Source of the DNA: Turneriella sp.
GTDB taxonomy: Bacteria > Spirochaetota > Leptospiria > Turneriellales > Turneriellaceae
Direction of reading: 5' to 3'
DNA: 64,000 bases
NCBI GenBank assembly: GCA_965279515.1
Contig: CBDIID010000003.1
Coordinates: 4,064,001-4,128,000 of the forward strand
This document shows positions 4,488-58,048 of the stretch, one piece after another. Position 1 is the first letter of the stretch. The number at the start of each line of letters is the position of its first letter. Both the position numbers and the translations under genes were made by a program. Below the pieces are notes generated by a model. The model did no database searches and was not told where the DNA came from. It saw only the letters and a program-made list of their open reading frames with translations.

Positions 4488-4553
4488 ATTATAGCCAGAA
4501 AAACCGCGCGGTCAATTCGGGTCGATACCGGCCAATGCGCGGACATTTACGTG
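4488..4553 (-). promoter_or_regulatory. Sigma70 promoter TTGACC-16-TATAAT with upstream box CACGTA-AATG-TCCGCG
   Basis: Box at 4538..4553 lies 22 bp from the -35 (4510..4515); -10 at 4488..4493. Confidence 0.65.
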
Positions 4554-4597
4554 GTTTATAATGCCCGGCTGAGCCTGCACAGGCTGTTTTTGGGCAG

Positions 4598-4664
4598 CAC
4601 GTATTAATACCCGGAAATTCGGGGAATACGGGCAATTGACGCTCCACGATTTCCGGTATAAAAT
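4598..4664 (+). promoter_or_regulatory. Box CACGTA-TTAA-TACCCG plus TTGACG-17-TAAAAT promoter
   Basis: Box 4598..4613, 22 bp gap, -35 at 4636, -10 at 4659. Confidence 0.65.
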
Positions 4665-4670
4665 CAAAGA

Positions 4671-5555
4671 ATGACAAGCGAGCTTTTGACTTTAGAGGGA
4701 CTGGAAGTGACGCTGCGCAGCATGCACCTGCCGTTTCAGCCGCAGGTACTGTCGGCTATATTGCAGCTCAGGGAAGATACGCGCATGAACTTCGGCGAGC
4801 TTGATCGCCTGATTCGGGTTGATCAGAATATCGCCTCGCTGGTTCTTAAGGTCGCCAATTCCAGTTTTTATTCGCGCGGGCAGGAGATCCGCACGCTGCC
4901 CCAGGCGATCGGCATGATCGGCTTCAGGACAATCGTTTCCCTGGTTTCAGCAGTCGCGACAAAAGAGATATTCAGAAGCGGCGATTACGCGCGGTTTAAA
5001 AAGTATGTCTGGCAGCATTCGCTCGCGGTCTCCATCATCGGCAGAATTCTCTCTGAAAAGCTTGGGCTGACGGAACTGAAAGAAGAGGTATTTATCGGCG
5101 GCCTGCTGCACGACATCGGCAAGGTTGTCCTGAACCAGATCGACCGCCGGAAGTTTATCGCCGTACTCGATCAGACGCTGGGCTCGGAGAATCCCTTTGG
5201 GCAGGCGGAATTGGAGCACTTCGGAGTAGATCACGCTTCGGTCGGACAACTGATCATTAAGATATGGAATTTACCGTTGGTATACCGCGAGGTCACGGTT
5301 TTTCAGAATAGTCCCGGCAATCCCGGTATCATGAAGTTGCCGGAGAAGGACCGCAATATCATCCATGTTGTCGGGCTGGCCAATCTCATCGCTAAAATCC
5401 ATAATTTCGGCCATGCAGAGAAGGCTGTCGATGATCTGCTGGGAGAGTTCTATCGATTGCTGCGCATCGGTCCCGAACATGAAATCCACAAAATTCACTG
5501 GCCGACGGCAGTGACGGACGATCCGCATTTGCAGATGCTTTCCATGGTTCACTAA
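4671..5555 (+). CDS. HDOD domain protein
   Basis: DQNIASLVLKVANSSFY, WQHSLAV, GGLLHDIGK, DHASVG motifs. Confidence 0.9.
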   Translation: MTSELLTLEGLEVTLRSMHLPFQPQVLSAILQLREDTRMNFGELDRLIRVDQNIASLVLKVANSSFYSRGQEIRTLPQAIGMIGFRTIVSLVSAVATKEIFRSGDYARFKKYVWQHSLAVSIIGRILSEKLGLTELKEEVFIGGLLHDIGKVVLNQIDRRKFIAVLDQTLGSENPFGQAELEHFGVDHASVGQLIIKIWNLPLVYREVTVFQNSPGNPGIMKLPEKDRNIIHVVGLANLIAKIHNFGHAEKAVDDLLGEFYRLLRIGPEHEIHKIHWPTAVTDDPHLQMLSMVH

Positions 5556-5558
5556 GTT

Positions 5559-7316: not shown

Positions 7317-7435
7317 AGTCGCTGCACCTCTCCGGCGATGCTGGCGAGGGCCTCGTTTTGCACTCCTTGCATCGAGACGAGAGGATCGATAGTTGAGACT
7401 TCAACCGATCCGCTTTGTGTTTCACGTACTAGTAC
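7316..7435 (-). pseudogene. Remnant of a DUF302-like gene C-terminus
   Basis: VLVRETQSGSVEVSTIDPLVSMQGVQNEALASIAGEVQRL resembles the DUF302 C-terminus; no N-terminal part. Confidence 0.6.
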
Positions 7436-7466
7436 CCGATTTATCGGAGAATTCCCCGGATTGACT
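7423..7466 (+). promoter_or_regulatory. Box CACGTA-CTAG-TACCCG, 22 bp before TTGACT
   Basis: Same geometry as the 4598 site; -10 unclear. Confidence 0.55.
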
Positions 7467-7544
7467 TTTGCTGAAATTTTATTTAAGCGTGCTATGCTCC
7501 GGTTCACCACCGGGTGCAGAAATAAAGCAACAGGAGATCAGTAT

Positions 7545-7940: not shown

Positions 7941-7963
7941 AAAATAGCTCTGAAAGGTCATAC

Positions 7964-8131: not shown

Positions 8132-8145
8132 AAAGGAGAAATAAA

Positions 8146-8834: not shown

Positions 8835-8878
8835 CAGGTAAAACTACCTGATAAGTCCTGTATATCACCGCCTTGACT
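8835..8878 (+). promoter_or_regulatory. Palindromic box CAGGTA-AAAC-TACCTG, 22 bp before TTGACT
   Basis: Upstream of the M50/host-attachment/P-ATPase operon. Confidence 0.6.
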
Positions 8879-10510: not shown

Positions 10511-10514
10511 GGTA

Positions 10515-13079
10515 ATGAAGGCCCTCCCGGATCTGCGCGCTTTTCGGGGAATTTCGCGCAGCGAAGCCGTCCAACGCCTCATGGCGGGCGGTTACAACGA
10601 AATTCAGCAGGCGAAACCTCCGGGGCGCGTTGCCATGGCATTTTCGGCGCTGCGCGAGCCGATGGTTTTACTGCTCTTAGTCTGTGCCGCGATCTACCTG
10701 TCCCTGGGCGATCTCCGCGAAGGGCTCATTATGTTCACTACCGTCTTCGTCGTGGGTGGTATTGAATTTTATCAGAGGCAGAAAACGGAAAGGACAATGG
10801 AGCAGCTGCGGCAATACTCGAGTCCGCGTGCCCTGGTTATCCGCGACGGAGAAGAAATGCGCATTGCAGGGCGCGAAGTTGTCACCGGCGATATCGTCAT
10901 CGTCCGCGAAGGTGACAGGGTCCCGGCAGATGCGGTGGTTCTCTTCGAACTGAATCTGGGTGTGGATGAATCTCTTCTGACCGGCGAATCGCACCCGGTT
11001 GCAAAAACCGAAGGCACCACGGCCACGCTGATCACTCCTCCGGGAGGCGACGTTTCAGCTTCGCTTTATTCGGGTACGCTCGTCGTCCAGGGCCAGGCTG
11101 TCGCGCTCGTAGCGGCCACGGGGGAATTCACGCAAATGGGCCTGCTGGGAAAAACACTCGCGGCTATCCCCGATGAGAAATCTGCCCTGCAGAAAGAAAC
11201 CGGCAGGATCGTTGCCGTGTTCGCGGTTGTGGCGTTTATTCTCTGCTCGGCAGTCGTCGTCACGTTTGCTATCCGCTATTCCAATTGGCTGAAAGGTTTT
11301 CTCGCTGGCACGGCGCTGGCGCTCTCCATGCTGCCCGAAGAGTTTCCGGTGGCGCTGACAATCTTCCTTGCTGTCGGGGCATGGCGTATCGCGCGCAAGA
11401 ATGTCATGACGCGCGTGCCGGCTGCGCTCGAGATTCTGGGTGCCACAAGCGTGCTTTGCTCCGATAAAACAGGAACGATAACAGAAAACCGCATGAGACT
11501 GACGATACTTGCCAATGATTCTGATGCCTTGCAGGTCGATTATTCCGCTCCGGCTGCGGAGCTGCCCGAAAGTTACCACGAAGTTCTTGAGTATGCAATT
11601 CTCGCCAGCCAGGCAAATCCCTACGATCCCATGGAGAAGGCAATTCTGTCGTTCGGAAATACGGCTCTTGCCGGCAGCGAACACTTACACGGCGAATGGA
11701 ACCTCTTCAAAGAATACCCGCTCTCCCGTTCGCTGCTGGCCATTTCGCGCGCTTTTAAGAATTCGCAGGGTGGCTTTGTCATCGCCGCGAAAGGGGCTCC
11801 CGAGGCGGTATTTGATCTTTGCCACCTGAATCCTGAAGCATTCGCAGAGCAGACAGGGCGTGTCACAGAGTTTGCCAAAAAGGGCCTGCGGGTCATCGCC
11901 GTAGCCAAAGCGTTACCCGGTAAAGACAGGCTTCCTGAAATACAGCATGATTTCGAATTCGAGTTCCTCGGCCTTCTGGGCTTTAAGGATCCTGTTCGGG
12001 CCGGTGTTCCGGATTCCATAGCTGCCTGTGCGAAAGCGGGCATCCGCGTCATTATGATCACCGGGGATCATCCGGCAACGGCCGCGCATATTGCCCGCGA
12101 AATACAGATAGCCGATTGCGATCGTGTGCTTACCGGAAACATGCTGCGGGAAATGAGCGCAGCAGAGCTTAAGGATAATATCCGGAGGACGAATGTCTTT
12201 GCCCGGATTTCTCCCGACCAGAAATTGCAGATTGTCCGCGCACTGAAAGAAAATGCAGCCACAGTCATTATGACCGGCGACGGTGTGAACGATGCGCCTG
12301 CGCTCAAGGCCGCCGACATTGGCATCGCCATGGGGGGCAAAGGCACCGACGTTGCGCGCGAAGCGGCCAAGCTTGTCTTACTCGACGATGATTTTTCGAA
12401 TATCGTTAAGGCAATTAGCCTGGGGCGCAGAATTGTCGCCAATTTGAGAAAGGCTTTTTCTTTCATTGTGGCATCCCATATTCCGATCGCTGCCGTTGCC
12501 CTGATCCCGGTTCTTTTTCCGGATCTGCCGGTGATTTTATTTCCGGTTCATATTGTTTTCCTCGAGCTGATTATCGATCCTGCATGCACGTTAGCCTTCG
12601 AGAATGAAGAAAACCCGCGGATTATGGATGCCCCGCTGGATGCGACCCAGGGACGGTTCTTCGATTTACGCTCCATAACCCTCAGCTTTCTGCAGGGTGT
12701 TTCGGTGACTGCGGCCGTCGTTGCCGTTTATTTTACGACCCGCTACACCGGTTACTCTGAAAATGTTTCCCGTGCGCTGACATTTGCCACACTTATCATG
12801 GGAAATATTTTCCTGATTCTGTCCAATGCATCAGCTTCGCGCTTCGCGCTGAATCCTGCGGGTTTCAGAAACCCGGCATTGCGCTGGATTATCATCGCGG
12901 CAATTTTGCTCCTGGCTGTAATACTCTATCTGCCGGGAATCCGTGAAGTTTTCCGCTTTGAATCGCCTGATTTCATAAGCCTCGCATTATGCGCCGCCTG
13001 CGCCTTTGCCGGTATATTGTGGTTTGAGGTGCTCAAGTATTGGCGGCAGGCTCAGCGCGCGCGCGGAATTTCAATTTGA
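10515..13079 (+). CDS. Cation-translocating P-type ATPase (Ca2+/P2A-like)
   Basis: TGES, PEEFP, DKTGT, KGAPE, MITGD, GDGVNDAP motifs. Confidence 0.95.
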   Translation: MKALPDLRAFRGISRSEAVQRLMAGGYNEIQQAKPPGRVAMAFSALREPMVLLLLVCAAIYLSLGDLREGLIMFTTVFVVGGIEFYQRQKTERTMEQLRQYSSPRALVIRDGEEMRIAGREVVTGDIVIVREGDRVPADAVVLFELNLGVDESLLTGESHPVAKTEGTTATLITPPGGDVSASLYSGTLVVQGQAVALVAATGEFTQMGLLGKTLAAIPDEKSALQKETGRIVAVFAVVAFILCSAVVVTFAIRYSNWLKGFLAGTALALSMLPEEFPVALTIFLAVGAWRIARKNVMTRVPAALEILGATSVLCSDKTGTITENRMRLTILANDSDALQVDYSAPAAELPESYHEVLEYAILASQANPYDPMEKAILSFGNTALAGSEHLHGEWNLFKEYPLSRSLLAISRAFKNSQGGFVIAAKGAPEAVFDLCHLNPEAFAEQTGRVTEFAKKGLRVIAVAKALPGKDRLPEIQHDFEFEFLGLLGFKDPVRAGVPDSIAACAKAGIRVIMITGDHPATAAHIAREIQIADCDRVLTGNMLREMSAAELKDNIRRTNVFARISPDQKLQIVRALKENAATVIMTGDGVNDAPALKAADIGIAMGGKGTDVAREAAKLVLLDDDFSNIVKAISLGRRIVANLRKAFSFIVASHIPIAAVALIPVLFPDLPVILFPVHIVFLELIIDPACTLAFENEENPRIMDAPLDATQGRFFDLRSITLSFLQGVSVTAAVVAVYFTTRYTGYSENVSRALTFATLIMGNIFLILSNASASRFALNPAGFRNPALRWIIIAAILLLAVILYLPGIREVFRFESPDFISLALCAACAFAGILWFEVLKYWRQAQRARGISI

Positions 13080-14128
13080 ATGCGCGAACCTTTGCCGGGC
13101 TCCGAAACGATCTGCAAAATGCCGCCCGCAATCTGGGCCCTTTCTTTCATAATGTGCAGGCCTAAACCTTTGCGGCGGTTTGCACCGGAGTGCAGGGCTT
13201 CAATATCCATACCTTGACCGTTGTCGCTTACCGCAACGACCAGGCTCCCGGCGCTGAGGGTTGCGGCAATTTCTATGCGGCTTGCGGCCGCATGTTTTAC
13301 CGCATTGACGAGTGCCTGTTCGACAATGCGGTAGACGTTGATATCCCAGTTTTCCGGGAAGAAACCGTCAAGCGATGCGACATCGGTAATGATTTCGGGG
13401 CCGTCCGCATGAGAAAAACGCTGCGCAAGCTGCAAAATCGCCTGGGCAATGCCCAAACCCTTGAGCCCGATCGGGCTCAGGTTATGCGAGAGCGTGCGAA
13501 CTTCCTGCAGAATTTCATCGAGGTAGGCGATGATTTCAGCGGCTTCGCTGAGTACAGGGAAGCCGCTCTGTTTTTCAATTTTTGCGAGCTTCGACTGCAG
13601 TTGCAGTTTTAGCGCGAGAAGCGATTGTCCCAGTCCGTCATGAATTTCCTGGGAAAGTGCGGAGCGTTCTTCTTCGCGGATTTGCAGGATTTTTTGTGAT
13701 AGTTGTTTGAGTTCCGCTTCGATGGATTTGCGTTCCATTGCATAACGCATCGATCTTGCGAGAAAAAAAGCGGATAACCCGTTCTTTTGCAGGAAATCCT
13801 GCGCGCCGGAGCGAACCGCGGCGGTGGCCATTTTTTCATCCTTGAGCCCCGTGAGCAGAATGATGGGAATCCGTAATGCTTCTTCCTGCGCTCTGTGGAA
13901 TGTCTCAAACCCCTGGCTGTCGGGCAGCGACAGGTCAAGGAGTATCAGGCGAATATTTTCGTTGCGTAATACATCCAAGCCTTCTCTCAGCGTTGTTTTC
14001 CAGATCAGTTGAAATTCTCCGGTATCTTCGCCGGGCATCAGGTTGATTTCTGAGACCATCTCTTCGATCAGGCGGGCATCACCTGGATTATCTTCGATGA
14101 GGAGAATATTGCGGTTCCGGTCAGTCAT
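13052..14128 (-). CDS. REC-HisKA_3 hybrid histidine kinase
   Basis: LLIEDN...LLDLSLPD receiver; EIHDGLGQ, NAVKHA, DNGQG, GLGL. Confidence 0.9.
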   Translation of the reverse strand: MTDRNRNILLIEDNPGDARLIEEMVSEINLMPGEDTGEFQLIWKTTLREGLDVLRNENIRLILLDLSLPDSQGFETFHRAQEEALRIPIILLTGLKDEKMATAAVRSGAQDFLQKNGLSAFFLARSMRYAMERKSIEAELKQLSQKILQIREEERSALSQEIHDGLGQSLLALKLQLQSKLAKIEKQSGFPVLSEAAEIIAYLDEILQEVRTLSHNLSPIGLKGLGIAQAILQLAQRFSHADGPEIITDVASLDGFFPENWDINVYRIVEQALVNAVKHAAASRIEIAATLSAGSLVVAVSDNGQGMDIEALHSGANRRKGLGLHIMKERAQIAGGILQIVSEPGKGSRIQIEIPRAR

Positions 14129-14133
14129 TGTGT

Positions 14134-14556
14134 TTACCGCGGTGGTAATTTGACAATGCTGAGCCAGAAGTCCTCTATCATTTTTATGACCTGGATAAAC
14201 TTCTCGAAGTCGACGGGTTTATTTATGTAACAATTGGCATGGAGATTATAAGTGCGGACGATATCCTGCTCGGCTTGTGACGTTGTCAGTATGACGACGG
14301 GGATTCTTTTCAGTTTTTCAGTATTCTTGATATGATCCAGGACTTCAACCCCGCTGACGCGCGGCAAATTGAGATCGAGCAGAATTAGGTCGGGGTGTGG
14401 ATTTGTTCCGGTATCGTTGTCGAGAAAAACAATCGCTTCTTCGCCGTCTTTCGCGATGTTCAGATGGTTTGATACCCGCCCTTCTTTTAATGCTTCTATC
14501 GTCAGGCGAATGTCCCCGGGATTATCTTCGACAAGCAGTATTTCGATAGATTTCAT
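14134..14556 (-). CDS. Rcp1-like single-domain response regulator
   Basis: LLVEDNPGD, LLDLNLP, YINKP, FWLSIVKLP. Confidence 0.9.
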   Translation of the reverse strand: MKSIEILLVEDNPGDIRLTIEALKEGRVSNHLNIAKDGEEAIVFLDNDTGTNPHPDLILLDLNLPRVSGVEVLDHIKNTEKLKRIPVVILTTSQAEQDIVRTYNLHANCYINKPVDFEKFIQVIKMIEDFWLSIVKLPPR

Positions 14557-14580
14557 AGGTGTACTCCTGACGGATGGCGC

Positions 14581-16020
14581 TTAGCCGGGCAACGTAAAAT
14601 GAAAAACAGTGCCCTTGCCTACAGTCGATTCCAGCCAGATCTTGCCGCCATGCCGTTCGACAATCTTTTTACATACCGCAAGGCCGATACCCGTACCCGG
14701 GTATTCAGCGCGGTGATTGAGGCGCTGGAAGATGACAAAGATCCGCTCAGCGTAATTCATATCGATACCAATGCCATTGTCGCTGACGGCGAACTGCCAG
14801 AAATCCCCTTTTTCCTGCACGGAAATACGGATTATGGGCGGCTTGTCTGAGCGGAACTTGATCGCATTGGTGATCAGGTTCTGGAAAAGTTGCAGGATCT
14901 GGGTTTTCTCGACCTTCAGCTGGGGCAATACGTCTGAATGAATTTCAGCCCCGGCTTCTTCTATGGCGATTTTCAGGTTGGCCTTAACCCTGTCCAAAAT
15001 TTCGTTGAGATCGGACTGTTGAAAGTTCTGTCCTGTCGTGGAGACGCGCGAGTAGGCGAGCAGATCGTTAATGAGTGTCTGCATGCGTTGTACACCATCG
15101 ACCGCGAAAGCGATAAATTCATTGGCGGATTCGTCGAGTTTGTCCTGGTAACGGCGAGCCAATAGCTGCACATAGCTGCCGATCATGCGCAAAGGTTCCT
15201 GCAGGTCATGCGACGCCACATAGGCGAATTGCTGCAATTCCGCATTGGAGCGTGCCAATTCACGCTGGATTTCCTTGAGCTCGGTAATATCTTCTTCAAT
15301 CGCCAGGTAATGCGTAATCTCGTTGGCGGCATCCTTGATCGGCGAGATCGAGGCCAAAACCCAGAACAGTTCTCCGGTTTTTTTCCGGTTATGGAATTCG
15401 CCTTTCCATTCCTCTCCTTTGGCTATCGTGCTCCACAGGCTGCGGTAGTCGTCTTCAGAGAGGTGCCCCGATTTCAGGAAGTTCGGGTTTTTTCCGATGA
15501 CCTCGGCCGCGGTGTAGCCGGTCACTTCAGTAAATTTCCTGTTTACGTATTCGAGACTGCCGTCTTTATTCGTCACCAGTACGAGACTTGCGCTCTGTTC
15601 CACGGCGCGTGACAGTTTGCGCAATCCCTCTTCGGCATTTACCCGCGCGGTAATATCGGAAACAATGCCCGTAAAATAGGTTTTTCCATGCAGGACCATT
15701 TTGCCTACGGAAAGGTTCATAGGAAATACAGAACCGTTTTTTCGCTTACCGGTAACTTCGCGGCCGATGCCGATGATTTTTGCTTTTCCGCTATTCGTGT
15801 AATTGGCGAGATAACCGTCATGCTCTTGCTGGTAGGGCGACGGCATCAGCATGTTGACATTTTTGCCGATAATTTCCGCAGCCTTATAACCGAATATTTT
15901 CTCTGCCGCGGGATTCAGCGAGTCGATGAGACCTTTTTCGTCGATGACAATAATACCATCGATGACGGTATCGAGAATCGCGCGAAGCCTGGCTTCTTCT
16001 TCGGAAAGTTCAGCTTGCAT
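14581..16020 (-). CDS. Cytoplasmic PAS-PAS histidine kinase (FixL-like heme PAS plus NifL-like PAS)
   Basis: LMPSPYQQEHDGY...IIGIGREVTG heme-PAS; FAYVASHDLQEPLR H-box. Confidence 0.9.
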   Translation of the reverse strand: MQAELSEEEARLRAILDTVIDGIIVIDEKGLIDSLNPAAEKIFGYKAAEIIGKNVNMLMPSPYQQEHDGYLANYTNSGKAKIIGIGREVTGKRKNGSVFPMNLSVGKMVLHGKTYFTGIVSDITARVNAEEGLRKLSRAVEQSASLVLVTNKDGSLEYVNRKFTEVTGYTAAEVIGKNPNFLKSGHLSEDDYRSLWSTIAKGEEWKGEFHNRKKTGELFWVLASISPIKDAANEITHYLAIEEDITELKEIQRELARSNAELQQFAYVASHDLQEPLRMIGSYVQLLARRYQDKLDESANEFIAFAVDGVQRMQTLINDLLAYSRVSTTGQNFQQSDLNEILDRVKANLKIAIEEAGAEIHSDVLPQLKVEKTQILQLFQNLITNAIKFRSDKPPIIRISVQEKGDFWQFAVSDNGIGIDMNYAERIFVIFQRLNHRAEYPGTGIGLAVCKKIVERHGGKIWLESTVGKGTVFHFTLPG

Positions 16021-16035
16021 TTCAGGATTTTCCGT

Positions 16036-16428
16036 TCAGTCTGAATCGGAAAACGAATCCTGTCCGGCAAGAACCTTTCGGATAGTGACAATCAGATTTT
16101 CAAAAACGGCGTCTTTGGATACGAAGGCTGCAGCTCCCTTTTCTTTGGCAACGCGACGGAAAATTTTGTCTTCTTGTCCCGAAACGATGATCGTGCGGAT
16201 CTCGGGATAGAGTTCAGAGATTTTTGCGAGCACGGTGAATCCGTTCATCTTTGGCATCGATATATCCAGTAGAATAAGGCTGCATTGAGGGTCGATTTGG
16301 GCCTCCAGCACAGCAATACCGTCCGAAAATTCGGCAATCACGCGGAATTCAGAATTGTCATGCAGATGCTGGCGCAATATTTTCCTGAAGGCGGCGTGGT
16401 CGTCGACGATGATGATACCCGGTTTCAT
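16036..16428 (-). CDS. Single-domain response regulator (NarL-type receiver)
   Basis: IIVDDH, LLDISMP, FVSK. Confidence 0.85.
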   Translation of the reverse strand: MKPGIIIVDDHAAFRKILRQHLHDNSEFRVIAEFSDGIAVLEAQIDPQCSLILLDISMPKMNGFTVLAKISELYPEIRTIIVSGQEDKIFRRVAKEKGAAAFVSKDAVFENLIVTIRKVLAGQDSFSDSD

Positions 16429-16463
16429 TTTCAAAAGCAATCCATATCATGAAACATCCGGCG

Positions 16464-16535
16464 GGTCAAGGCGGCAAAATACATGGAGAAACACGTATTT
16501 ATACGTGTGAAATTGGCCCGGTAGAGTCGTTGCGG
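16464..16535. promoter_or_regulatory. Bidirectional box CACGTA-TTTA-TACGTG (16492..16507)
   Basis: 22 bp to TTGACC on the minus strand (16464..16469) and 22 bp to TTGCGG on the plus strand (16530). Confidence 0.65.
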
Positions 16536-16588
16536 GCCCGCATTTTTGAGTGGACGGCGGGTTTTATTTCTATGCTCAAATAGCAAAA

Positions 16589-17239
16589 ATGGATAACTCG
16601 CCCGGGAAAAAACGCATTATTCTTGCGGATGATCATGCGATTCTGCGTGCTGGTCTCAAGAATCTCATTGCCGAAGACAGTGAATTTCTTGTGGTCGCGG
16701 AAGCGAATGACGGCGAGTCGCTGCTCGCGAGGCTGAAATCCACACCCTGCGATCTTGTCATCATGGACATTTCGATGCCCAACCTGAACGGCCTCGCAGC
16801 GCTCGAACAGATCAAAAAAATCTACCCGAAAATGAAAGTGCTGATCTTGAGCATGCACAAAGAACGCGACTATGTAAAGAACGCTATGGTTAAGGGTGCG
16901 GACGGGTACATGTTTAAGGACGCCGTATTTGACAAACTGCTTTCATCGGTAAAAGATATTTTTTTGGGCCAGAAAGCGTTTTCCTCCGAAGTCATGACAA
17001 TATTCCTCGACGAATATGTGCACGCGCAGGAGGGGCAATCCACCCTGGATAACCTGACCAAACGGGAGCGTGAAGTCTTGCGCGCTCTCGTCAAGGGGCT
17101 CACGAACAAGGAGATCGCCGATCAGCTCGACATCAGTGCGCGTACGGTCGAGGGGCACCGGGCAAATCTCATGGATAAACTAAACGTGAAGAACATGGCG
17201 GAGCTCATGAAAACGGCGATTTCTCTCGGTATCAACTGA
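16589..17239 (+). CDS. NarL/NreC-family DNA-binding response regulator
   Basis: ADDH, MDISMP, LTKREREVL...ISARTVEGHRANLMDKL. Confidence 0.92.
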   Translation: MDNSPGKKRIILADDHAILRAGLKNLIAEDSEFLVVAEANDGESLLARLKSTPCDLVIMDISMPNLNGLAALEQIKKIYPKMKVLILSMHKERDYVKNAMVKGADGYMFKDAVFDKLLSSVKDIFLGQKAFSSEVMTIFLDEYVHAQEGQSTLDNLTKREREVLRALVKGLTNKEIADQLDISARTVEGHRANLMDKLNVKNMAELMKTAISLGIN

Positions 17240-17259
17240 CCCGGCGCCTGGCGGCGATA

Positions 17260-17910
17260 TCAAACAAGTCCTTTGTCGACCGCATAACGAACCAGGTCTG
17301 TAACATTCCCGAATTCCAATTTCTCCATGATGCGGCTGCGGTAGGCCTCGACCGTGCGCGAGCTGATATCCAGCTCTTCGGCTATCACAATGTTTGTCCA
17401 GCCGCGGGCGAGAAAGACCAAAACTTCTTTTTCTCGTTTGGTGAGCAAATTCAGCGAGATATGGCTTTCTTTAAGAACCCGGCGCTCGTCCGTTGCTACC
17501 GTCAGTAGCTCTTTAGAAAAGGATTTATGCCCGGCGGCGATGGATTTAATCGCCGAGATCAGTTTCTCAAAAGCCTCGTCTTTTAAAAGATAACCCTGGA
17601 CCTTTTTTGCCAGCGCTTTCTGCACAAATTCAGGTTCCTTATGCATGCTCAAAATCAGAATTTTCAGATCCGGGTAAGATTCCCGGATAGCAGATAATGC
17701 TTCCAGGCCGCTGAGTTCAGGCATGGATAAATCGAGAATCAGCATGTCGCACGGCTTCTCGCCCAGTATTTCGAGCAGGCGCCTGCCATTTTCCGCTTCG
17801 GCAACAACCGTCATGGTCGGATTTTCATTGATGAGGTTTTTCAGGCCGGTGCGCAGTATGGGATGGTCGTCGACGAGAACAATGCGCAGTTTTCGGATCT
17901 CATTGAACAT
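17260..17910 (-). CDS. NarL/NreC-family DNA-binding response regulator
   Basis: VDDH, LDLSMP, LTKREKEVL...ISSRTVEAYRSRIMEKL. Confidence 0.9.
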   Translation of the reverse strand: MFNEIRKLRIVLVDDHPILRTGLKNLINENPTMTVVAEAENGRRLLEILGEKPCDMLILDLSMPELSGLEALSAIRESYPDLKILILSMHKEPEFVQKALAKKVQGYLLKDEAFEKLISAIKSIAAGHKSFSKELLTVATDERRVLKESHISLNLLTKREKEVLVFLARGWTNIVIAEELDISSRTVEAYRSRIMEKLEFGNVTDLVRYAVDKGLV

Positions 17911-18068: not shown

Positions 18069-18539
18069 TCAGGTAAAAACAATATGCCCGCCGGCAGCTT
18101 TCTCATAGAATTCGCCGACGGTAATAATTTCCGAAACCTGTTCGCAGAAATCTTCTTTTTTGAGTTTGAACATGTCGACCGAGGCCTTACATCCATAAAG
18201 ACCAGCGCCTGAATCGTGAATCATCTGGATGAATTCGGGTATCGGTGGAATATCCAGCTCCGACATCTGTTTTTTCATCATATGCGTTGCGAGTCCTGAC
18301 ATGCCCGGCAGCATGCCTAGCAGCGTCGGCATATGCATACCGGGATTTCCCACCGTTGCCACCTTGATGTGGTCCATCGTCTTTTTCACGACCGCGTCGA
18401 GGCCAAAAAAGGTGAAGAAGACATTCACCGTGATTCCTTCCATGCGGGCGCCGTTGGCCATGATGAGCCCGGGGTAAACTCCGTCGAGCGAACCCTTGCT
18501 GATGATAATGGATACCTTTTCTTTGCTTAAATCTGACAT
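18069..18539 (-). CDS. DsrE2-type (DsrE/DsrF/DrsH-like) sulfur transferase
   Basis: FFTFFGL, LYGCKASVDM, ITVGEFYE motifs. Confidence 0.85.
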   Translation of the reverse strand: MSDLSKEKVSIIISKGSLDGVYPGLIMANGARMEGITVNVFFTFFGLDAVVKKTMDHIKVATVGNPGMHMPTLLGMLPGMSGLATHMMKKQMSELDIPPIPEFIQMIHDSGAGLYGCKASVDMFKLKKEDFCEQVSEIITVGEFYEKAAGGHIVFT

Positions 18540-18556
18540 AATTTTCTCCTATGTTC

Positions 18557-18871
18557 TTAAATACACCCTACAGGCTTGGGGACGCCGGCGATCTTCGCTG
18601 CCTTTTTTCCCGGGCCGCCGGGAAAAAGAGCATAGAGTTCCTTCGTATCCACACCGGAAAATTTTGTAATCCGCCTGATCGTCGGCGATTTGCCGGTTTC
18701 CTGAAAATCCTTGCGCATGAAGCGGATCACCTGCCAGTGCCGGTCACTGAGCGTGATACCCTCGTTCTTCGCAATCGTGCCGGCCAGATCTTCTGACCAG
18801 TCACCGGGATTCACGAGGAATCCCTCATCGTTCACCGGTGGTGATTGTATTGTTGTGGTTTCCGTTATCAT
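18557..18871 (-). CDS. TusE/DsrC-family sulfur relay protein (single C-terminal Cys)
   Basis: DEGFL, HWQVI, LFPGGP...AGVPKPVGCI. Confidence 0.9.
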   Translation of the reverse strand: MITETTTIQSPPVNDEGFLVNPGDWSEDLAGTIAKNEGITLSDRHWQVIRFMRKDFQETGKSPTIRRITKFSGVDTKELYALFPGGPGKKAAKIAGVPKPVGCI

Positions 18872-22537: not shown

Positions 22538-22581
22538 CTGCAAGTCGGCAGGTTACTTTGAAAATCGGGTAGAAGTACGTG
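22538..22581 (-). promoter_or_regulatory. Box CACGTA-CTTC-TACCCG, 22 bp before TTGCAG, upstream of ppsA
   Basis: Box at 22566..22581 on the minus strand. Confidence 0.6.
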
Positions 22582-28965: not shown

Positions 28966-29043
28966 AGCTGTCTTTAACCCATTTCCGCGTCCCCGTCAAT
29001 GCGGTGATCGACGCAGCATACCGCGTAATATTACCTGGCAGAG

Positions 29044-41689: not shown

Positions 41690-41756
41690 TCTGTATTTCT
41701 ACGCAATCCATCCTGCGTGATCGCGAATTGCTTTTTTGGGAGAGGCAGATTAAATG
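41690..41756 (+). promoter_or_regulatory. Box TCTGTA-TTTC-TACGCA, 22 bp before TTGCTT-17-TAAATG
   Basis: Same geometry as the island-1 boxes. Confidence 0.5.
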
Positions 41757-44020: not shown

Positions 44021-44064
44021 GGTCAATTGGGCACCGTTGGGAGAAATCTGTGTGGAAATACTGA
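44021..44064 (-). promoter_or_regulatory. Box TCAGTA-TTTC-CACACA, 22 bp before TTGACC
   Basis: Upstream of the pseudoREC-cyclase gene. Confidence 0.45.
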
Positions 44065-48044: not shown

Positions 48045-48692
48045 TTAGTTGAGATCGTTATCGACGGCGAAACGTATGAGGCCCGAAAGAGTATTGATAC
48101 GAAGTTTGGTTTTCATGTTTAGCCGGTGTGTTTCAACCGTTCTGAAATTTATTCCCATGCGCTCGCCGATTTCCTTGCAACTCATACCCTGCGCAGTGAG
48201 GCGGAGCACTTCCCGTTCTTTTTTCGTCAGTATTTCGGAAGCCACCGTTTTTTCCACGTCCAGGCTTAGATTATCGAGCATCACGGAGGTCAGCTCAGGG
48301 CAGAGGTATTTCCGGCCGGCAAAAACCTCATCGATTGCCCGCGACAAACGGGCCATAGCGTCTTCTTTCAATACATATCCACGGGCGCCTTTGGCGAATG
48401 CTTTTTTTACAAAAGCGCGGTCGCTATGTGAAGTGAGTACAACAGGTCTTACTTTGGGAAATTTTTCGCGCATTTTCTCAAGCGCTTCAAAGCCATTCAT
48501 CTGCGGCATGGCCAGATCCATAATGACAACATCGCAGGGCACAGAGGCCAGTTTGCTGAGTAATTCCGTCCCGTCAGAGGCTTCAGCAACAACCTGGTAT
48601 TGGGGTTTTGACTCGATCAGTAGTTTTAATCCCGCACGTATCAGCTTGTGGTCGTCAGCAAGGATTAAGCGGCATTTTTTGGTATTATTCAC
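48045..48692 (-). CDS. NarL/NreC-family DNA-binding response regulator
   Basis: ADDH, MDLAMP, INFRTVETHRLNMKTKL. Confidence 0.9.
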   Translation of the reverse strand: MNNTKKCRLILADDHKLIRAGLKLLIESKPQYQVVAEASDGTELLSKLASVPCDVVIMDLAMPQMNGFEALEKMREKFPKVRPVVLTSHSDRAFVKKAFAKGARGYVLKEDAMARLSRAIDEVFAGRKYLCPELTSVMLDNLSLDVEKTVASEILTKKEREVLRLTAQGMSCKEIGERMGINFRTVETHRLNMKTKLRINTLSGLIRFAVDNDLN

Positions 48693-51012: not shown

Positions 51013-51396
51013 TTATTCCGCGGCGCCGATGATTTTCTCCACGACTGACAGTACCCTTGCAGGTAAGAATGGTTTTACCATCCACGCCGAAGCTCCGGCC
51101 AATTGACCTTCTGTACGTTTTTCTTCACTACTTTCGGTCGTCAGCATTACGATGGGCGCAAATTTGAAGGCTTCGTAGGACGAATCATTTTTCATCGCCT
51201 TGACAAAATCAATGCCGTTAAGATTTGGCATATTTACGTCGCAGATGATGAGATTCGGGCTAAATGAGACTACGTTGTCGAGAGCCATTTTTCCATCTTC
51301 TGCGGTATGAACCTCGTATCCGGCGGCTTCTAACGTAACGCTGACTAATTGACGAATCGTTCTTGAATCGTCCACGACCATAACTTTTTTTGCCAT
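51013..51396 (-). CDS. cheY: CheY-like response regulator
   Basis: VVDDS, ICDVNMP, MLTTES, WMVKPF; AGGAGG RBS. Confidence 0.88.
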   Translation of the reverse strand: MAKKVMVVDDSRTIRQLVSVTLEAAGYEVHTAEDGKMALDNVVSFSPNLIICDVNMPNLNGIDFVKAMKNDSSYEAFKFAPIVMLTTESSEEKRTEGQLAGASAWMVKPFLPARVLSVVEKIIGAAE

Positions 51397-51415
51397 AATT
51401 TTCCTCCTAAGGATT

Positions 51416-52570
51416 TTAAAAAAATTCCACCTCTCCAGGCTTGTTGCTGTAGGTCTGAAGCAGTTCCGCTTCGGTGAGTGCTGTCGCGATCGGAGCATCT
51501 GCTTTCATATTTAACACGCAGTATAATGTAAGTACTTCCGATTTTTCCCGGACTTTATGCAGCTTGACCTGCTTCACCTCAAGCTGAGGGCGCAATGCCT
51601 CGCAGGTCTCGGCGTCGATCAGGATATCCACACTTGCCTGTCCTGTCCACGATTGCAGCTTCTCTGCGAGGTCCACCGGATCGCCCAGAATCGTGTGCTC
51701 TTTCCGGTATTTGGAACCAACGTTTCCGGCAAAAAATTTTCCGGTACTGATGCCGATGCCGTACGAAATCGGTTCAGTCACGAAAACAGGTCGCCGGTCG
51801 TTATAGGCTCTCATGAAATTCCGTATCTCAAGGGAGCATTTTACGGCGTTGTATGTGTCATTATTGTAGAACACAGGATAGCCAAATGTTGCCAGAATAC
51901 CATCTCCGGTATATTTCGTCAGCGAACCGTGGTTGGCATAAACGATGGCAGCGACACCTTCAAACAAGGATGACAGAAAAACCGCGAAGTCGTCAGGAGG
52001 TAAGTCCTTGCTGATCTCCTCCGGTATTTTGAGTTCAAAGTGAAATACTGAGGCATAAGTCAGAATGCCTTTGTCGTCACCCTGAAGTCTGCCGCCCAGC
52101 AGATGGTCACGAATATCGCGCGAAAAATACTTTCCCAGAATCTGAGTGTTGCGGGTGAGTTCAGTGATTTTTGCTTCGAGGCCTTTGCGATTCTGCAGCT
52201 TACCGAAAGCGCGCTCAATTAACAGTGAGAATTCATGGAGATCGATAGGTTTTTGGAGAATTTGGGTAACACCGTTTTTTAACGCGAGTATACGGGCCTG
52301 CGCCGGCAGGGGTGCACTGGTGAGCAGATAAATTTCAATCCCTGCGTCGAGATGGTTTTCTGCTATCTTGGTGAGCAGAGCAAACTGTTCCTTGGGATCG
52401 TCGTCGAGATCCAGAACCAGGATATCCGCCTGTCTTTCCTGCAGCTTCACGTAGCAGGTATCCAGATTGTTTGCCTGGAAAATCCGGCAATCCAGAATCT
52501 GCCCGAAATCGAGAAGTTTCTCCGTATCGCTGTTGCCGGTGTATAAGATGTTGATTGCTGTTTCAGTCAT
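51416..52570 (-). CDS. Receiver plus degenerate class III cyclase
   Basis: LVLD/T/KP receiver retained; cyclase motifs FHFEL, KEHTILGDPVDLAEK altered. Confidence 0.82.
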   Translation of the reverse strand: MTETAINILYTGNSDTEKLLDFGQILDCRIFQANNLDTCYVKLQERQADILVLDLDDDPKEQFALLTKIAENHLDAGIEIYLLTSAPLPAQARILALKNGVTQILQKPIDLHEFSLLIERAFGKLQNRKGLEAKITELTRNTQILGKYFSRDIRDHLLGGRLQGDDKGILTYASVFHFELKIPEEISKDLPPDDFAVFLSSLFEGVAAIVYANHGSLTKYTGDGILATFGYPVFYNNDTYNAVKCSLEIRNFMRAYNDRRPVFVTEPISYGIGISTGKFFAGNVGSKYRKEHTILGDPVDLAEKLQSWTGQASVDILIDAETCEALRPQLEVKQVKLHKVREKSEVLTLYCVLNMKADAPIATALTEAELLQTYSNKPGEVEFF

Positions 52571-52573
52571 CGG

Positions 52574-53077
52574 TTAATTCCTTTTCCCTGCTGTCATATC
52601 ACGCAGTTGCTGTATTTCCTCTACATCGAGTAAACGGGCGATGTTTAGGAGCAATACGAATTTTCCGGCAATTTTACCTACATTGGAAATAAAATCCGCG
52701 CGGATGCGTGTGCCGAAGTTGGGCGAGCCTTCAAGATTGTCCTTTTCGAGGCGTACAACTTCATTAACGGCGTCGACCATGAGGCCCACGTCGAGTTTTG
52801 AACCGTCATAATCCATCTCCGTGACGACGATGCAGGTCATTTTTGTCTGCTCCGTTTTTTCCCAGTCAAAACGCCTGCTTACGTCAAGAACAGGCAGAAC
52901 ATTCCCGCGCAAATTCAGGATGCCCTTAATAAATTCGGGCATCAGTGGAATGGGTGTCACATTACCATACGCCATGATTTCCTTGGCGTGATTGATGTTT
53001 AATCCAAATGCCTGATCTTTTACCCGAAAAGTCAGGAACTGGCCGCTGAGGTAACTGGTGGCTGTTTCGGTTGCCAT
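52574..53077 (-). CDS. cheW: Chemotaxis adaptor CheW
   Basis: FLTF, GILNLRGNVLPV, GLMVDAV. Confidence 0.93.
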   Translation of the reverse strand: MATETATSYLSGQFLTFRVKDQAFGLNINHAKEIMAYGNVTPIPLMPEFIKGILNLRGNVLPVLDVSRRFDWEKTEQTKMTCIVVTEMDYDGSKLDVGLMVDAVNEVVRLEKDNLEGSPNFGTRIRADFISNVGKIAGKFVLLLNIARLLDVEEIQQLRDMTAGKRN

Positions 53078-53083
53078 ATTACC

Positions 53084-55330
53084 TCAGTCAAACTTCACGA
53101 ATTGCGCCCGCGATTCCGGTAGCTTGGGAACTGCTGGTAGTTTCACATGGCCGTTGCCGTTTGCCATGTGATTTTGTTTCTGGGCCTGAACGGCCTCGGT
53201 TTTTTTGGGCGCCGTTTTTGCCACTGCATATTGCTGTGACAGGGTGAAGAAGCCGATCGTCTCCTGCAGGGCCGAAGCCTGCGCATTCAATTCTTCGGCG
53301 GTGCTGGCCATTTCTTCAGAAGCAGATGCATTGGTCTGTGTGACTGAATCCAATTGCTGCATCGACTGCTGCATTTGGTCCACGCCAATTTTCTGTTGCT
53401 GTGACGCGGCGTTGACTTCCTGTACTAATTCAGCGGTTTTCTTTATGGTGGGCACGATTATTTCCAGAAGCTCGCCGGCTTTTTCCGTAACTCCGACACT
53501 GCGCTGTACGAGGCCACCAATTTCCTGCGCGGCCGCCCGACTGCGTTCTGCGAGTTCGCGCACTTCTGATGCCACAACTGCAAAGCCGCGGCCGTGTTCG
53601 CCTGCCCGGGCAGCTTCGATAGCCGCATTCAGGGCCAATAGATTAGTCTGGTAAGCGATTTCCTCTACGAGCTCGATTTTCTTGGAAATGTCGCGCATGA
53701 CTTTCACGGTTTCGTTGACTGCTTCACCACCTTCCACAGCCTTCTTCGCCGCATCGACTGCAATGTCGCTGGTGCGCTTTGTGTTCTCGGTGTTTTGTGC
53801 GATTGTCGCGACCATCTCTTCGAGCGAGGCGGAGCTTTCTTCAACGTTAGCAGCCGCTTCGGTTGCCGCCTGGCTTAGGCCCTGCGCGGAGCTGTTAATC
53901 TGCTCTGAGGCACTCTGCACCCCAAGCACGGCCGAAAGAATACCACTCATAGAAGATTCAAGTTGCTCCATCGCACTGTTGAGGTTGTCCCTGATTTTAT
54001 TGAATTCCGGATCAAATTCCCCTTTGACGCGAGTGCCCAATATGCCTTTTTGCAGTTCTTCAAGGCTGGCGCTGATTCTTACAACGGCGTTTTTTTTCTG
54101 GGTGATATCGGTTGCGTACTTCACAACTTTGAACGGTTTGCCGTTGAGGTCAAAAATCGGATTGTACGTTGCCTGCAGCCAGATTTCTTTTCCGCCTTTT
54201 CCGATGCGACGGTATTCGTTGGCCTGAAACTCACCCTGGTTGAGCTTCGCCCAAAAGCTCCGGTATTCCTCGCCGACGGCATATCCAGGTTCAACGAACA
54301 TACGGTGGTGTTGCCCCTGAATTTCGGGTAAAGTATAACCCACCGCACCGAGGAATGCTGCGTTGGCTGTAATAATAGTACCATCGAGTTTAAATTCGAT
54401 AACAGCCTGTGACTTCTGTATGGCATCGAGTTGGCCCGTGAAATCCGCATTGCGCATCTTTTGTTCCGTGATATCGATAGCGAATTTGACAACTTTCCAC
54501 ACCTTACCCGACGGATCCAAAACGGGATTGTACGCGCCCTGAATCCAAACCTCGCGGCCGCCTTTGGCGATCCTTTTGAATTCGCCTGACTGGTACTGGC
54601 CCTGATTTAACTTGTTCCAGAAAAGCCGGTAATCTTCGCCCGCTGCCGTCGCGGGGTCGACAAAGATCCGGTGGTGCTGACCTGCAACCTCACTCTGATC
54701 GTAGCCCATGAGGCTGAGGAAATTTTTATTCGCGCGTACGATCGTACCGTCGAGTTTGAACTCGACAATTGCCTGCGTTTTATCAACTGCGTCAAGTTGC
54801 CCCGTAAAGTTCGCATATTCTTTTTTCTTTTCCGTGATATCGGTGGCGAATTTTACAATCTTCACAAGTTTTCGGCCCTCAAAAACAGGATTGTAGGCGC
54901 CTTGAATCCAGACCTCGTGTCCGTCCCGTGCGATACGTTTGAATTCGCCGGAGTTATACTCCCCCGAATTCAGGCGACTCCAGAATGATCTGTATTCATC
55001 GCTTGACGAGTATGCGTTGTCGACGAAGATACGGTGGTGTTTTCCCTGGATATCTGCCAGAGAATACCCCATCAGGTTCAGAAAATTTTCATTTGCGGTG
55101 ATAATAGTGCCGTCGGTCCTGAATTCAATGACAGCCTGCGATTTATTGATAGCCTCAATCTTGCCCTCTAAATCGCTTATTTTACCTCCACCGCGCCGGC
55201 GCAAAAACAAAAAGACCGCGAGCGCTCCCATCAGAAGCAGCCCTGCTGCCAACACGATGATGAGCAGTGACTCATTTCCACGCTGTGGCAACCCTTCCAC
55301 CATCAGAAATACCAGATTATTGAAATTCAT
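53084..55330 (-). CDS. Methyl-accepting chemotaxis protein with one TM and three PAS domains
   Basis: Three GQHH/GKHH PAS repeats; [27 protein letters not shown] hairpin. Confidence 0.95.
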
Positions 55331-55347
55331 TTTTCCTCCATAACATT

Positions 55348-57291
55348 TTACGATTGCAGTTTCGATTTTTCATCGGTAATTAACTCGACGATTCCCTGAA
55401 TATCGACTATCAGAGCCATATCTCCGTCTCCGAGTATGGTAGCCCCGCCGAGACCGGGGATTCCCGAAAGAAATCCATTCAGGGGTTTGATCACGGTCTG
55501 ATATTCACCGAGGGGTTCATCGACAACAATGCCAATCCTTGCCGCACCCCACTGAATGACGACCAGGCTCTCACGGTCTATTTGTTTGCCCGGGATGTGG
55601 AAAATTTGTTTGAGCCGCACGTAGGGAAGAACCTCGCCGCGCAGATTGAAAAGCTGGCTTTCATACTCGGATTTTTTTTCCGCATCCTGCCTGAAATCGA
55701 TGCACTCTTTGATGGCTTCCAGGGGAATAATGAATCTCTGACTCTCTGACCGCACGAGAAAACCGTCGATGATGGCGAGGGTAAGGGGTAAGGCGATACG
55801 CATTGTCGTACCTTTGCCCTCTTCAGAATAGATGCGGATCGTACCACGCAGCGCTTCGATGTTCTTCTTCACGACATCCATGCCCACGCCGCGGCCTGAA
55901 AGCTCGGTTACGGTGTCAGCGGTTGAGAAACCGGGTTGCAGAATAAATTGCTGTATCTCCGTCGCCGAATATTCGCGATCTTCACCGGCGATGCCGCGTT
56001 CACGCGCTTTTTGAAGGATTTTCTGGTAGTTAAGACCGCGCCCATCATCTGTAATCTCAATGACGATGGTGCCGGCTTCATGAAAAGCCGTGAGAGAGAT
56101 TGTGCCTGATCTGGCTTTGCCACGTTCTTCGCGTTCCTCGGCTGATTCGATCCCGTGATCTATTGCATTACGTATGATGTGCACCAGCGGATCGTTAATT
56201 TTTTCAATGACGTTTTTATCGAGTTCGGTTTCCTCACCGTGGAAAGCGATCGTGATTTCCTTGCCAATTCGCGCCGCAGTATCACGAACGATGCGCTCCA
56301 TTTTCCGGAATGTTGCACCTATGGGAACCATCCGCAGATTCATCGCCAGTTCGCGGACGTTCTCCACAAGCCGCGACATTTCCTTCACTGGTTTCAGGAA
56401 AGCCCGCACCTGGTGTGCCTGAACCAATTGCTGCAGGCTGCTGTTTTTCATAACCAATTCGCCGACTAAATTGACGAAATCATCAAGTTTGCCGGCGTCC
56501 ACGCGGATCGAGTGCCCCGTACGCGTTTTCGCTTCCTGCTTGGGGATACTTCCGTGTATAACTGCCGCGCCCTCTGGCTCTGCCTGCCGGATCGCAGTGA
56601 TCGTGGCCTGGGATTTCAGGAATTCAAATGCTTCATCGATAACGGTTGCGGCTGTGACAGCATTGACATGCTCAGAAAATTGAATGCCTATTTTCAGATA
56701 ACACGATTCCGGATCGTAGTTTTCGGCAAGGGGAATGGAGTCCGGATAGACCCATACCGAATCGACATCGCTGTTTTTCAGCAGATAGCCCAAGGCGTTT
56801 TCGAGCGACATGCGCGAGCGGAAGAGATCCTCGCTGGTGGCGATGGAATAACTTAAGGGCGCGGGTCTCGATGCCGGAGTTGCAAGAAGCTGGTTGAGCC
56901 GCAGCATCAGGGCATTGCTGATTGCTGTGAGCTCCGTGTCGGCCGGTCCGGTATTTTCAGCCTCGGTATAATAAGCCAGTAATGCCTGCAGGTGGTCATA
57001 ACCATTAAAGAGTAGTGTCGTAAGTTCCCTTGTAAGTACAAGGTTTTGACTGCGCAGCGCATCCAGAACATTCTCCATGGTATGCGCAAAACGGATGAGT
57101 TCGTCGTAAGCAAAAACGGCTCCAGACCCTTTGATCGTGTGCACGGCGCGAAAAGCTGTGTGGATGGACTCCATATTAGAAGTATCTTTCTCCAGATCCA
57201 GGAGCGCACGCTCAAATGCTGTCATGTGCTCTCTCGCATCTTCAAGATACGCAGAACGCAGATTATCCATGTTGATCTGAAGGTTTGCCAT
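55348..57291 (-). CDS. cheA: Chemotaxis histidine kinase CheA
   Basis: [26 protein letters not shown], CheW-like P5 domain. Confidence 0.95.
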
Positions 57292-57659
57292 TAGAACTCC
57301 TGTGGGGCTACCCCATAGCGAAATCGGCTGCCAGCTTCCGGACCTTTCTGTAAAACAATTTTATCCCGAAACAGCCCGGTGACTCCGTACATCTCGATCA
57401 GTTTAAGAGCGGGGGCGGAATGGTTGATGAATTTTACTTTCGTTCGCGTCAGGTGTGCGTTTTTCTTAAGCACTGCCAGAAGTTGAATTCCCGCTGTATC
57501 GATATCATCCAGAGATTTCAGATCCAAAACGAGCATGTCATAGGCACGCAGGTATGGAAAAATATCCAGCCAGGCGTTTTTGACAGACATCGCTGTGAGC
57601 GGTCCGGCGCATGTGATGACGCAGCGCCGGTCCTTATCGTAGGTCTTCTCAATGCGCAT
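57291..57659 (-). CDS. STAS domain protein
   Basis: LDLKSLDDIDTAGIQLL. Confidence 0.85.
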   Translation of the reverse strand: MRIEKTYDKDRRCVITCAGPLTAMSVKNAWLDIFPYLRAYDMLVLDLKSLDDIDTAGIQLLAVLKKNAHLTRTKVKFINHSAPALKLIEMYGVTGLFRDKIVLQKGPEAGSRFRYGVAPQEF

Positions 57660-57957
57660 CGATGAGTTTTGCAAAGTAACCTGAAAAGTTAAGATCCCGG
57701 ATCAGACCGATAATTTTAGGCGTACTTTCAAGGTTTGCCGGTAGGGTGTTTTGCTGTAGTTTTAACCCCAGAGATGCAAGAACGCTAAGGTTCTGCATGG
57801 AAAGCACCGAATCATCGTATACGCGCACGGTTACGTTCTCCAGCTTTTCCTGGTCGAGCACGTATTCCAGTTCTGTCCAAATCTTGTATGTCCCCTTATC
57901 GAGATCTGTTTTCTCCAGGGATAAAAAAAGCTTATTGCTATTTCTGACTAAATTCAT
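57649..57957 (-). CDS. Divergent STAS-like protein
   Basis: GGAGG RBS, first gene of the che operon, STAS-like size and pattern. Confidence 0.6.
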   Translation of the reverse strand: MNLVRNSNKLFLSLEKTDLDKGTYKIWTELEYVLDQEKLENVTVRVYDDSVLSMQNLSVLASLGLKLQQNTLPANLESTPKIIGLIRDLNFSGYFAKLIDAH

Positions 57958-58004
57958 TTGCGTTCCTCCCGCGGTGCGTATGATTTAACACATTTTCAGT
58001 CCGG

Positions 58005-58048
58005 TGTCAATTTGCCCATGAACGTAATTTTCTGCGCGGAAACACGCA
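58005..58048 (-). promoter_or_regulatory. Box TGCGTG-TTTC-CGCGCA, 22 bp before TTGACA-17-TAAATC (che operon promoter)
   Basis: Box 58033..58048; -35 at 58005..58010. Confidence 0.55.

Follow-up and report, generated by a model that had tools for sequence, protein, structure and literature searches.

We analysed a 64,000-nucleotide stretch of the genome of Turneriella sp. (GCA_965279515.1, contig CBDIID010000003.1, positions 4,064,001 to 4,128,000), referred to here as the window and corresponding to C3:4064001-4128000 of the 4.9-Mb genome G000. The element in question is a 16-bp operator in which two inverted 6-bp half-sites flank a 4-bp spacer, and which lies at a fixed 22 bp from the TTG of a −35 sequence. 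The operator is real and conserved. FixJ-like regulators probably dock on this palindrome and on a weaker site abutting the −35 sequence; boxes whose outer bases are C and G (C…G) would serve a relay fed by a haem-based O2 sensor, and those with T and A at their ends (T…A) would serve chemosensory clusters.

A tandem operator 22 bp upstream of the −35 sequence

A preliminary description of the window had listed nine boxes. All nine 16-mers were found at the coordinates claimed for them, and the distance from box to TTG (d) was exactly 22 bp in each, including the reverse direction of the box at 16492. The hexamers were likewise as claimed, TTGAC occurring in seven of ten promoter directions and TTGC in three. 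A tenth box, overlooked at that stage, lies at 29022-29037 on the minus strand, also at d = 22, upstream of a [2Fe-2S] ferredoxin gene. Genes in the window were called with our own script and annotated with Pfam and NCBIfam.

Numerically, the motif was enriched over shuffled intergenic DNA: in the 22 intergenic segments of the window (6,759 bp), the pattern of box, 22 bp and TTG had seven matches compared with none in each of 300 shuffles, a test that is circular because the pattern was derived from the tested sites. Enrichment at the position 22 bp upstream of TTG was borne out by a held-out matrix and by congeneric genomes. The matrix was trained on 26 sites from relatives only (27 were found, and one spurious-looking row, L026, was removed). 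Among 4,089 intergenic TTG[AC] candidates, it identified 15 sites of at least 8 bits at d = 22, as compared with 0.9 at each control offset; the box at 7423 fell outside these candidates because our gene caller missed its gene. Across 13 congeneric genomes, whose kinship means that they are not independent, 22 of 63 matches lay at d = 22 versus approximately two at each other offset. Cores with spacers of 2, 3, 5 or 6 bp gave no peak at d = 22, and a loose core pattern run over 41 genomes was dropped for its high background.

The spacer contains a third half-site that the preliminary description missed. Half of the 50 aligned sites, 25, carry GTA 13 positions before the TTG, at −13 (16 of 27 from relatives and nine of 23 candidates in G000, versus seven of 751 background TTGAC promoters), and this column was not used when the aligned sites were selected. 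Because GTA recurs at −13, the 22 bp are not a free spacer and the layout is tandem: a 16-bp box, 6 bp, a second 16-bp site and the −35 sequence. In the window's genus, conservation of the second site is confined to its left half; the second palindrome is complete at promoters of G022, a genome of another family. The 10 bp upstream of the primary box carry no information and hold no third box. Across the class, 190 genomes yielded 28 matches to a tripartite pattern, as compared with five for a reversed control, and 25 of the 28 showed the 22-bp geometry; in family f8 the tripartite pattern matched in only two of 114 genomes.

At −10 spacing, TA stands in 24 of the 27 sites from relatives and in 17 of the 23 from G000, versus 166 of 751 background promoters, and the full TAnnnT hexamer in only eight and seven of these sites, respectively. 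A good −35 sequence combined with a weak −10 would fit activator-dependent promoters. Given a 17-bp spacer, the centres of the two sites would lie at about −66 and −44. The preliminary description had proposed class I activation from a single site near −65. Its upstream box stands; the pure class I reading fails because a second, weaker site abuts the −35 sequence and is complete in G022. The arrangement found is that of tandem class I and class II sites, the second lying 22 bp downstream of the first and present as a left half in the genus and in full in G022.

Two spellings of the box and their candidate readers

The boxes of the window belong to two accessory islands, of which the second carries chemotaxis (che) genes. 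All seven boxes of island 1 end in C…G, and all seven boxes of che clusters end in T…A: three in the window and four in a core cluster at C3:4.688-4.702 Mb. T…A boxes at d = 22 were present in all ten genus genomes with an orthologue of the regulator C3:4701169 and in none of the four in which no orthologue was found (14 genomes; the four are 84, 98, 94 and 83% complete). C…G matches lay at d = 22 in nine of 11, two of seven and two of three cases in G000, G001 and G008, respectively, and in one of 22 in the other 11 genus genomes, this one lying inside an open reading frame (ORF). Within the genus, a FixL-like kinase occurs only in G000, G001 and G008, and G008 shows the same split of spellings by cluster as G000. 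The preliminary description had assigned both islands to one regulon under the three regulators of the window. The shared box type and the 22-bp distance survive from that proposal; a single regulon appears unlikely because the two spellings have different genome distributions.

The three regulators are encoded at 16589..17239 (+), 17260..17910 (−) and 48045..48692 (−). As had been proposed, the box is probably a site for an activator of the NarL/FixJ family: it matches FixJ sites, and the DNA-binding domain of 16589 is closest to that of FixJ, its best solved relative (E 1e-14; DosR/DevR chains, E 5e-7). We nevertheless rejected the regulators as FixJ orthologues, only the DNA-binding domain being FixJ-like. 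They scored 103, 88 and 90 against the FixJ model NF006900, whose cut-off is 255, and none of the three reached the cut-off of either the FixJ or the NarL model. In a 52-row tree comprising the window regulators, relatives and 19 of 79 distant loci, with near-duplicates collapsed, 48045 formed a clade with C3:4701169 (100/98), the che-linked regulator found genus-wide, apart from 16589 and 17260.

The sensor operon of island 1 encodes a PAS-PAS-HisKA kinase (14581..16020, −) with a FixL-type haem PAS domain. Its PAS-A matches FixL with an E of 5e-35 and keeps the His and IIGIGR, and haem binding is predicted; the whole protein falls below the FixL model cut-off. A single-domain receiver (14134..14556, −) and a REC-HisKA_3 kinase (13052..14128, −) are the predicted relay to the NarL-type regulators, and a further single-domain receiver at the head of the operon (16036..16428, −) is a possible feedback modulator. 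G073 and G074 show the gene order of the relay operon, in which FixL, receiver and REC/HisKA_3 genes are closed by a single NarL regulator that is 54-55% like 17260 and 51-53% like 16589; the promoter of the G074 operon lies off the contig. The surroundings of the module-like regulators of G041, G044, G082 and G184 yielded no box.

G000, G001 and G008 carry orthologues of both 16589 and 17260 (that of 16589 in G008 is a C-terminal stub at a contig edge), so distribution does not separate the two as readers of the C…G boxes. Our tentative first choice is 17260; 16589 is a possible second, and reading by both is unlikely. The regulator C3:2269304 was ruled out as a reader: it has orthologues in G001 and G006, yet both genomes lack T…A sites at d = 22. 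The helix Gly of 16589 or Arg of 17260 is a candidate for the switch between C and T, but Arg is found with T…A boxes as well (G054, family f7). A third spelling specific to 48045 was not borne out, with two of ten matches in G003 and one of 30 in G002, G007 and G011; for G000 this pattern is circular.

In the mechanism that we favour, the FixL-like kinase 14581 would become active at low O2 and pass the signal via 14134 and 13052 to 17260 and/or 16589. A phosphorylated regulator dimer would bind the strong box at about −66 and help a second dimer onto the weak site at about −44, next to sigma70, recruiting RNA polymerase to promoters whose −35 sequence is good and whose −10 sequence is weak. 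In this manner, 17260/16589 would induce a set of targets comprising their sensor operon, ppsA-sqr-dsrC-dsrE, SDR-pfkB, the protease-ATPase operon, the ferredoxin and the cyclases. For the T…A boxes, the predicted reader is C3:4701169, perhaps along with its paralogue 48045, in a feedback on chemosensory clusters that contain Aer.

Boxed promoters and a probable oxygen link

The link of island 1 to low oxygen appears well supported. A C…G box at 22566..22581 (−), with a third half-site at 22554-22559 and the −35 sequence TTGCAG at 22538-22543, precedes ppsA-sqr-dsrC-dsrE(-17260). The predicted targets at 18069..22508 (−) are ppsA, a type III sulfide:quinone reductase gene (sqr), and dsrC-like and dsrE-like genes. 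G022 has a full tandem box upstream of sqr-dsrC-dsrE genes that are 60-77% identical to those of the window, and in both G016 and G022 a kinase with FixL-PAS and HisKA_3 adjoins a NarL-type regulator. The boxed sqr-dsrC-dsrE genes of G022, together with the FixL-PAS kinase pair, tie the 22566 operon independently to an O2 sensor. Boxes also precede ccoN in both of these genomes, and a small cco-linked gene. The preliminary description had called the entire regulon O2-responsive. This is sustained for island 1, given the FixL-type haem PAS of 14581 and the ccoN and sqr boxes of G016 and G022; for the che genes, the link to O2 or energy consists of an Aer-type receptor. The sqr (unit 18069-20124) scored above the NCBIfam cut-off of the 'selenoprotein subtype' model of type III sulfide:quinone reductases, and sqr is kept as a unit with the dsrC- and dsrE-like genes in G001 and G022.

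The sensor operon and 16589 lie on either side of a perfect palindrome at 16492..16507, which is retained at the equivalent place in G001. Its leftward promoter is well formed, with a third half-site at 16480-16485 and the −35 sequence at 16464-16469. The rightward promoter, towards 16589, is doubtful: it reads TTGCGG, lacks a third half-site and shows no −10-like hexamer at 17 bp. The remaining C…G primary boxes precede a range of predicted targets. That at 4538..4553 (−; third half-site 4526-4531, −35 at 4510-4515) belongs to an SDR-pfkB operon, and an orthologous box precedes the SDR gene of G001 at d = 22. The box at 4598..4613 (+; −35 at 4636-4641) belongs to an operon with HDOD and adenylate/guanylate cyclase genes, and that at 7423..7438 (+; −35 at 7461-7466) lies upstream of a Cys-rich repeat protein gene starting at 7545. 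An M50/CBS protease, a host-attachment protein and a P-type ATPase are the targets of the box at 8835..8850 (+; third half-site 8857-8862, −35 at 8873-8878). The island-1 set of pfkB, M50-CBS protease and P-type ATPase may resemble the DosR regulon. Finally, the box at 29022..29037 (−; −35 at 28994-28999) precedes the gene for a thioredoxin-like [2Fe-2S] ferredoxin (28657-28965) and is kept at d = 22 upstream of its orthologues in G001 and G008. These orthologues adjoin the sensor operon in both genomes, and the ferredoxin might feed back on the relay.

The three T…A boxes of the window are weaker. That at 41690..41705 (+), upstream of a REC-HD phosphodiesterase-like gene, is supported (rank 15 of 4,089, empirical p 1e-4), and a T…A box at d = 22 also precedes the paralogue of this gene in the core cluster, C3:4687870. 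The degenerate box at 44049..44064 (−), upstream of a cyclase-like gene, is borderline (rank 20, p 1e-3, with about four expected by chance). A second degenerate box, at 58033..58048 (−), stands at the head of the accessory che operon (51013..57957, −; cheA, a methyl-accepting chemotaxis protein gene with three PAS domains, cheW, a cyclase and cheY). Its matrix score was below zero, and its support is its position: the gene that follows, 57649, is paralogous to C3:4689126, and the promoter of the latter has a box in G000 and six relatives. The accessory operon as a whole is partly paralogous to the core cluster C3:4689126-4702271.

The strongest T…A sites lie some 560 kb past the end of the window, around C3:4701169, the fourth regulator. 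The core cluster there (C3:4687870-4703146, L245) encodes an Aer-type receptor, two PAS kinases, one of them REC-PAS-HisKA_3, and the NarL-type regulator, and has four boxed promoters. It is possibly a chemosensory pathway with a transcriptional output, and a similar layout occurs in G073 (L322). Elsewhere in the genome, boxes at d = 22 occur at C3:4193469, 1538287, 1390468, 4275505, 1572842 and 3458300; they precede genes for a HAMP-cyclase, two flavin amine oxidoreductases, a flavodoxin-fold protein, a PAS chemoreceptor and a 63-aa Cys-rich protein.

Boxes recur beside genes for NarL-type regulators in several families and in Thermodesulfobacteriota-type records. Family f7 has a variant at d = 24. 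The 79 distant loci near 16589-like genes showed no peak at d = 22, and a 24-bp period occurred in 12 of them, all related Desulfobaccales/deltaproteobacterial-type records (L115, L118, L119, L121, L123, L124, L134, L135, L144, L165, L174 and L181). In the six loci that were mapped, the 24-bp form lies between a NarL-type gene just upstream and a REC-kinase gene; judged by eye from the sequence, hyp-like (hydrogenase maturation) genes are near four of the six. A strict C…G tandem had three hits in metagenome contigs, all overlapping ORFs and chance-like. Two identical boxed promoters, 2.4 kb apart at G184:C31:188533 and 190937 (L257), adjoin repeated transposase-like ORFs. Within the window, a perfect C…G palindrome at 8438-8453 falls in the coding region 8281-8754, has no TTG at +22 and may be due to chance. 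Lastly, the 815-aa product of 59668-62115 has a class I/II aminotransferase domain in its N-terminal part, and its long C-terminal part received no annotation.

Alternative explanations and comparison with known systems

Several observations weigh against a division of the boxes between an oxygen relay and chemosensory clusters. No residue of the recognition helix sorts cleanly with the spelling, and island 2 encodes no HisKA_3 kinase for 48045. The spelling split is a correlation among genomes and linked genes that are not independent, and where a cluster is absent its promoters and regulator vanish together. G001, 84% complete, has C…G boxes though no orthologue of 4701169 was found in it. 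Mixed ends occur in G073, whose FixL operon has a C…A box and whose che cluster has T…G and T…A boxes, and at two sites of G000, C3:1390468 and C3:4275505. T…A is not che-specific across the order, since it accompanies a FixL-type pair in G016 and G022. As for the tandem layout, the right half of the second site hardly exceeds background in the genus (2.9-3.0 versus 2.6 of 6), and exact GTA at −13 is present in only four of 11 promoter directions of the window. In G000 the regulon is not one for respiration globally, since no strong box is present at its cco cluster (25 loose matches, 23 expected). Finally, we infer the sign of the O2 response by analogy with FixL, and the relay could invert it.

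One alternative, which extends the preliminary proposal to C3:4701169, is a single shared regulon: all four paralogous regulators would read both spellings, so that O2 and chemosensory inputs would meet at common promoters. The regulators share a TVE.[HY]R helix, mixed-end boxes exist, and C…G sites still rank in the top 13 of a matrix whose training sites were mostly T…A; in the ComA direct repeat, moreover, the first half-site position is described as the most tolerant, by about two-fold (PMC4797271). We consider this alternative unlikely in view of the seven-versus-seven split by cluster within G000, repeated in G008, and of the confinement of C…G to genomes with the FixL-like module. Somewhat less unlikely, though still doubtful, is that only island 1 is live in the window, with 44049 and 58033 being relics of a duplicated che cluster or chance matches. 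This would account for the borderline and negative scores of these two sites, and the weak-site pattern is not clearly enriched at d = 22 in G003 (two of ten), the sole relative with an orthologue of 48045. Against it, 41690, 44049 and 58033 all keep d = 22, the TTTC spacer and T…A ends, and 58033 and 41690 precede paralogues of boxed core-cluster genes.

It is very improbable that the boxes are read by another family, such as Crp/Fnr, or form a copied promoter repeat and no operator. The spacer columns carry almost no information, which argues against a copied repeat. The genome does encode four Crp-type helix-turn-helix proteins, and several cyclases are among the targets. By contrast, the FNR/FixK palindrome TTGA-N6-TCAA is at chance level in the window (two matches versus 1.35 expected), neither match being at a boxed promoter, and the boxes recur beside genes for NarL-type regulators and match FixJ sites in sequence. 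The four Crp-type genes lie elsewhere: no Crp/Fnr gene was found downstream of the top-ranked sites, as a fixK- or nifA-like target would be.

The preliminary description had termed the operator unannotated, which holds for these genomes; the motif itself is a FixJ-like box. A literature search, in which subscription journals were thinly covered, returned no publication on this motif, and supplements may hold further lists of FixJ-type sites. The aligned fixK promoters of PMC4999443 contain a 16-bp FixJ site and palindromes such as TACGTA-N4-TACGTA, a spelling that also occurs in G012 and G025. Compared by eye, the palindromes of all seven promoters in Fig. S2 of that study differ from the relatives' T…A consensus at zero to three positions; the palindromes compared may not be those that its authors marked. 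The likeness to FixLJ/fixK extends from the 16-bp 6-4-6 palindrome with its GTA/TAC core and T…A ends to a FixJ-like recognition helix, a FixL-type haem PAS sensor and two binding regions per promoter. The C…G spelling, however, is not among the fixK sites shown there. In the seven fixK promoters of Fig. S2, again judged by eye, the next palindrome follows 14 bp on and there is no TTG at +22, whereas the promoters described here have a 22-bp period with a canonical −35 sequence. Here, the partner kinase is of the HisKA_3 type and is reached via a predicted relay, and the targets look like effector genes and not like fixK or nifA.

The spacing finds its closest likeness in BvgA, also of the NarL family, which at fhaB is reported to place dimers at −66.5 and −44.5, 22 bp apart, the weakest site being beside the −35 sequence and filled cooperatively from the strong site (PMC9708447); such filling is predicted here. 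According to the same source, BvgA differs in its 14-bp palindromes of another sequence and in having three sites at fhaB, compared with the two found here. NarL at yeaR and ogt is described as binding a 16-bp site just upstream of the −35 sequence, centred at −43.5/−44.5, with ogt requiring a tandem (PMC10853779). The position resembles that of our second site; the half-site sequence, the 33-bp spacing at ogt and the signal, nitrate, are different. ComA, as reported in PMC4797271, shares a 6-4-6 inverted repeat, after which come a conserved third half-site (RE3) and a degenerate fourth, but its second unit is a direct repeat, where G022 has a second inverted repeat. DosR/DevR is similar in that its hypoxia regulon combines high- and low-affinity cooperative sites (PMC3029386). 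Both ComA and DosR/DevR differ from the present system in sequences and sensors.

The operator would work like a FixJ or BvgA promoter and is not a member of the FixJ regulon. Tentatively, two paralogous FixJ-like systems may be kept apart within one cell by a single outer base pair of the operator: an ancestral T…A form that stayed with an Aer-containing chemosensory pathway transcribing its own cluster, and a C…G form in which a haem-O2 phosphorelay drives sulfide, carbon and cyclic nucleotide monophosphate genes without a FixK step. Lineages that have only the FixL-type pair, G016 and G022, would have kept T…A.

The activation geometry itself is textbook, and the mechanism is of a known kind. 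New are the lineage, the combination of a FixJ-like sequence with BvgA-like spacing, and the possible insulation of paralogous systems by one base pair. For these free-living spirochaetes, this is the first predicted low-oxygen regulon together with its operator. It ties an operon of type III sulfide:quinone reductase, dsrC and dsrE to a predicted FixL-type sensor and, in two other genera, the cbb3 oxidase as well. The two spellings would also offer a compact natural test case for how paralogous regulators of the NarL family avoid cross-activation.

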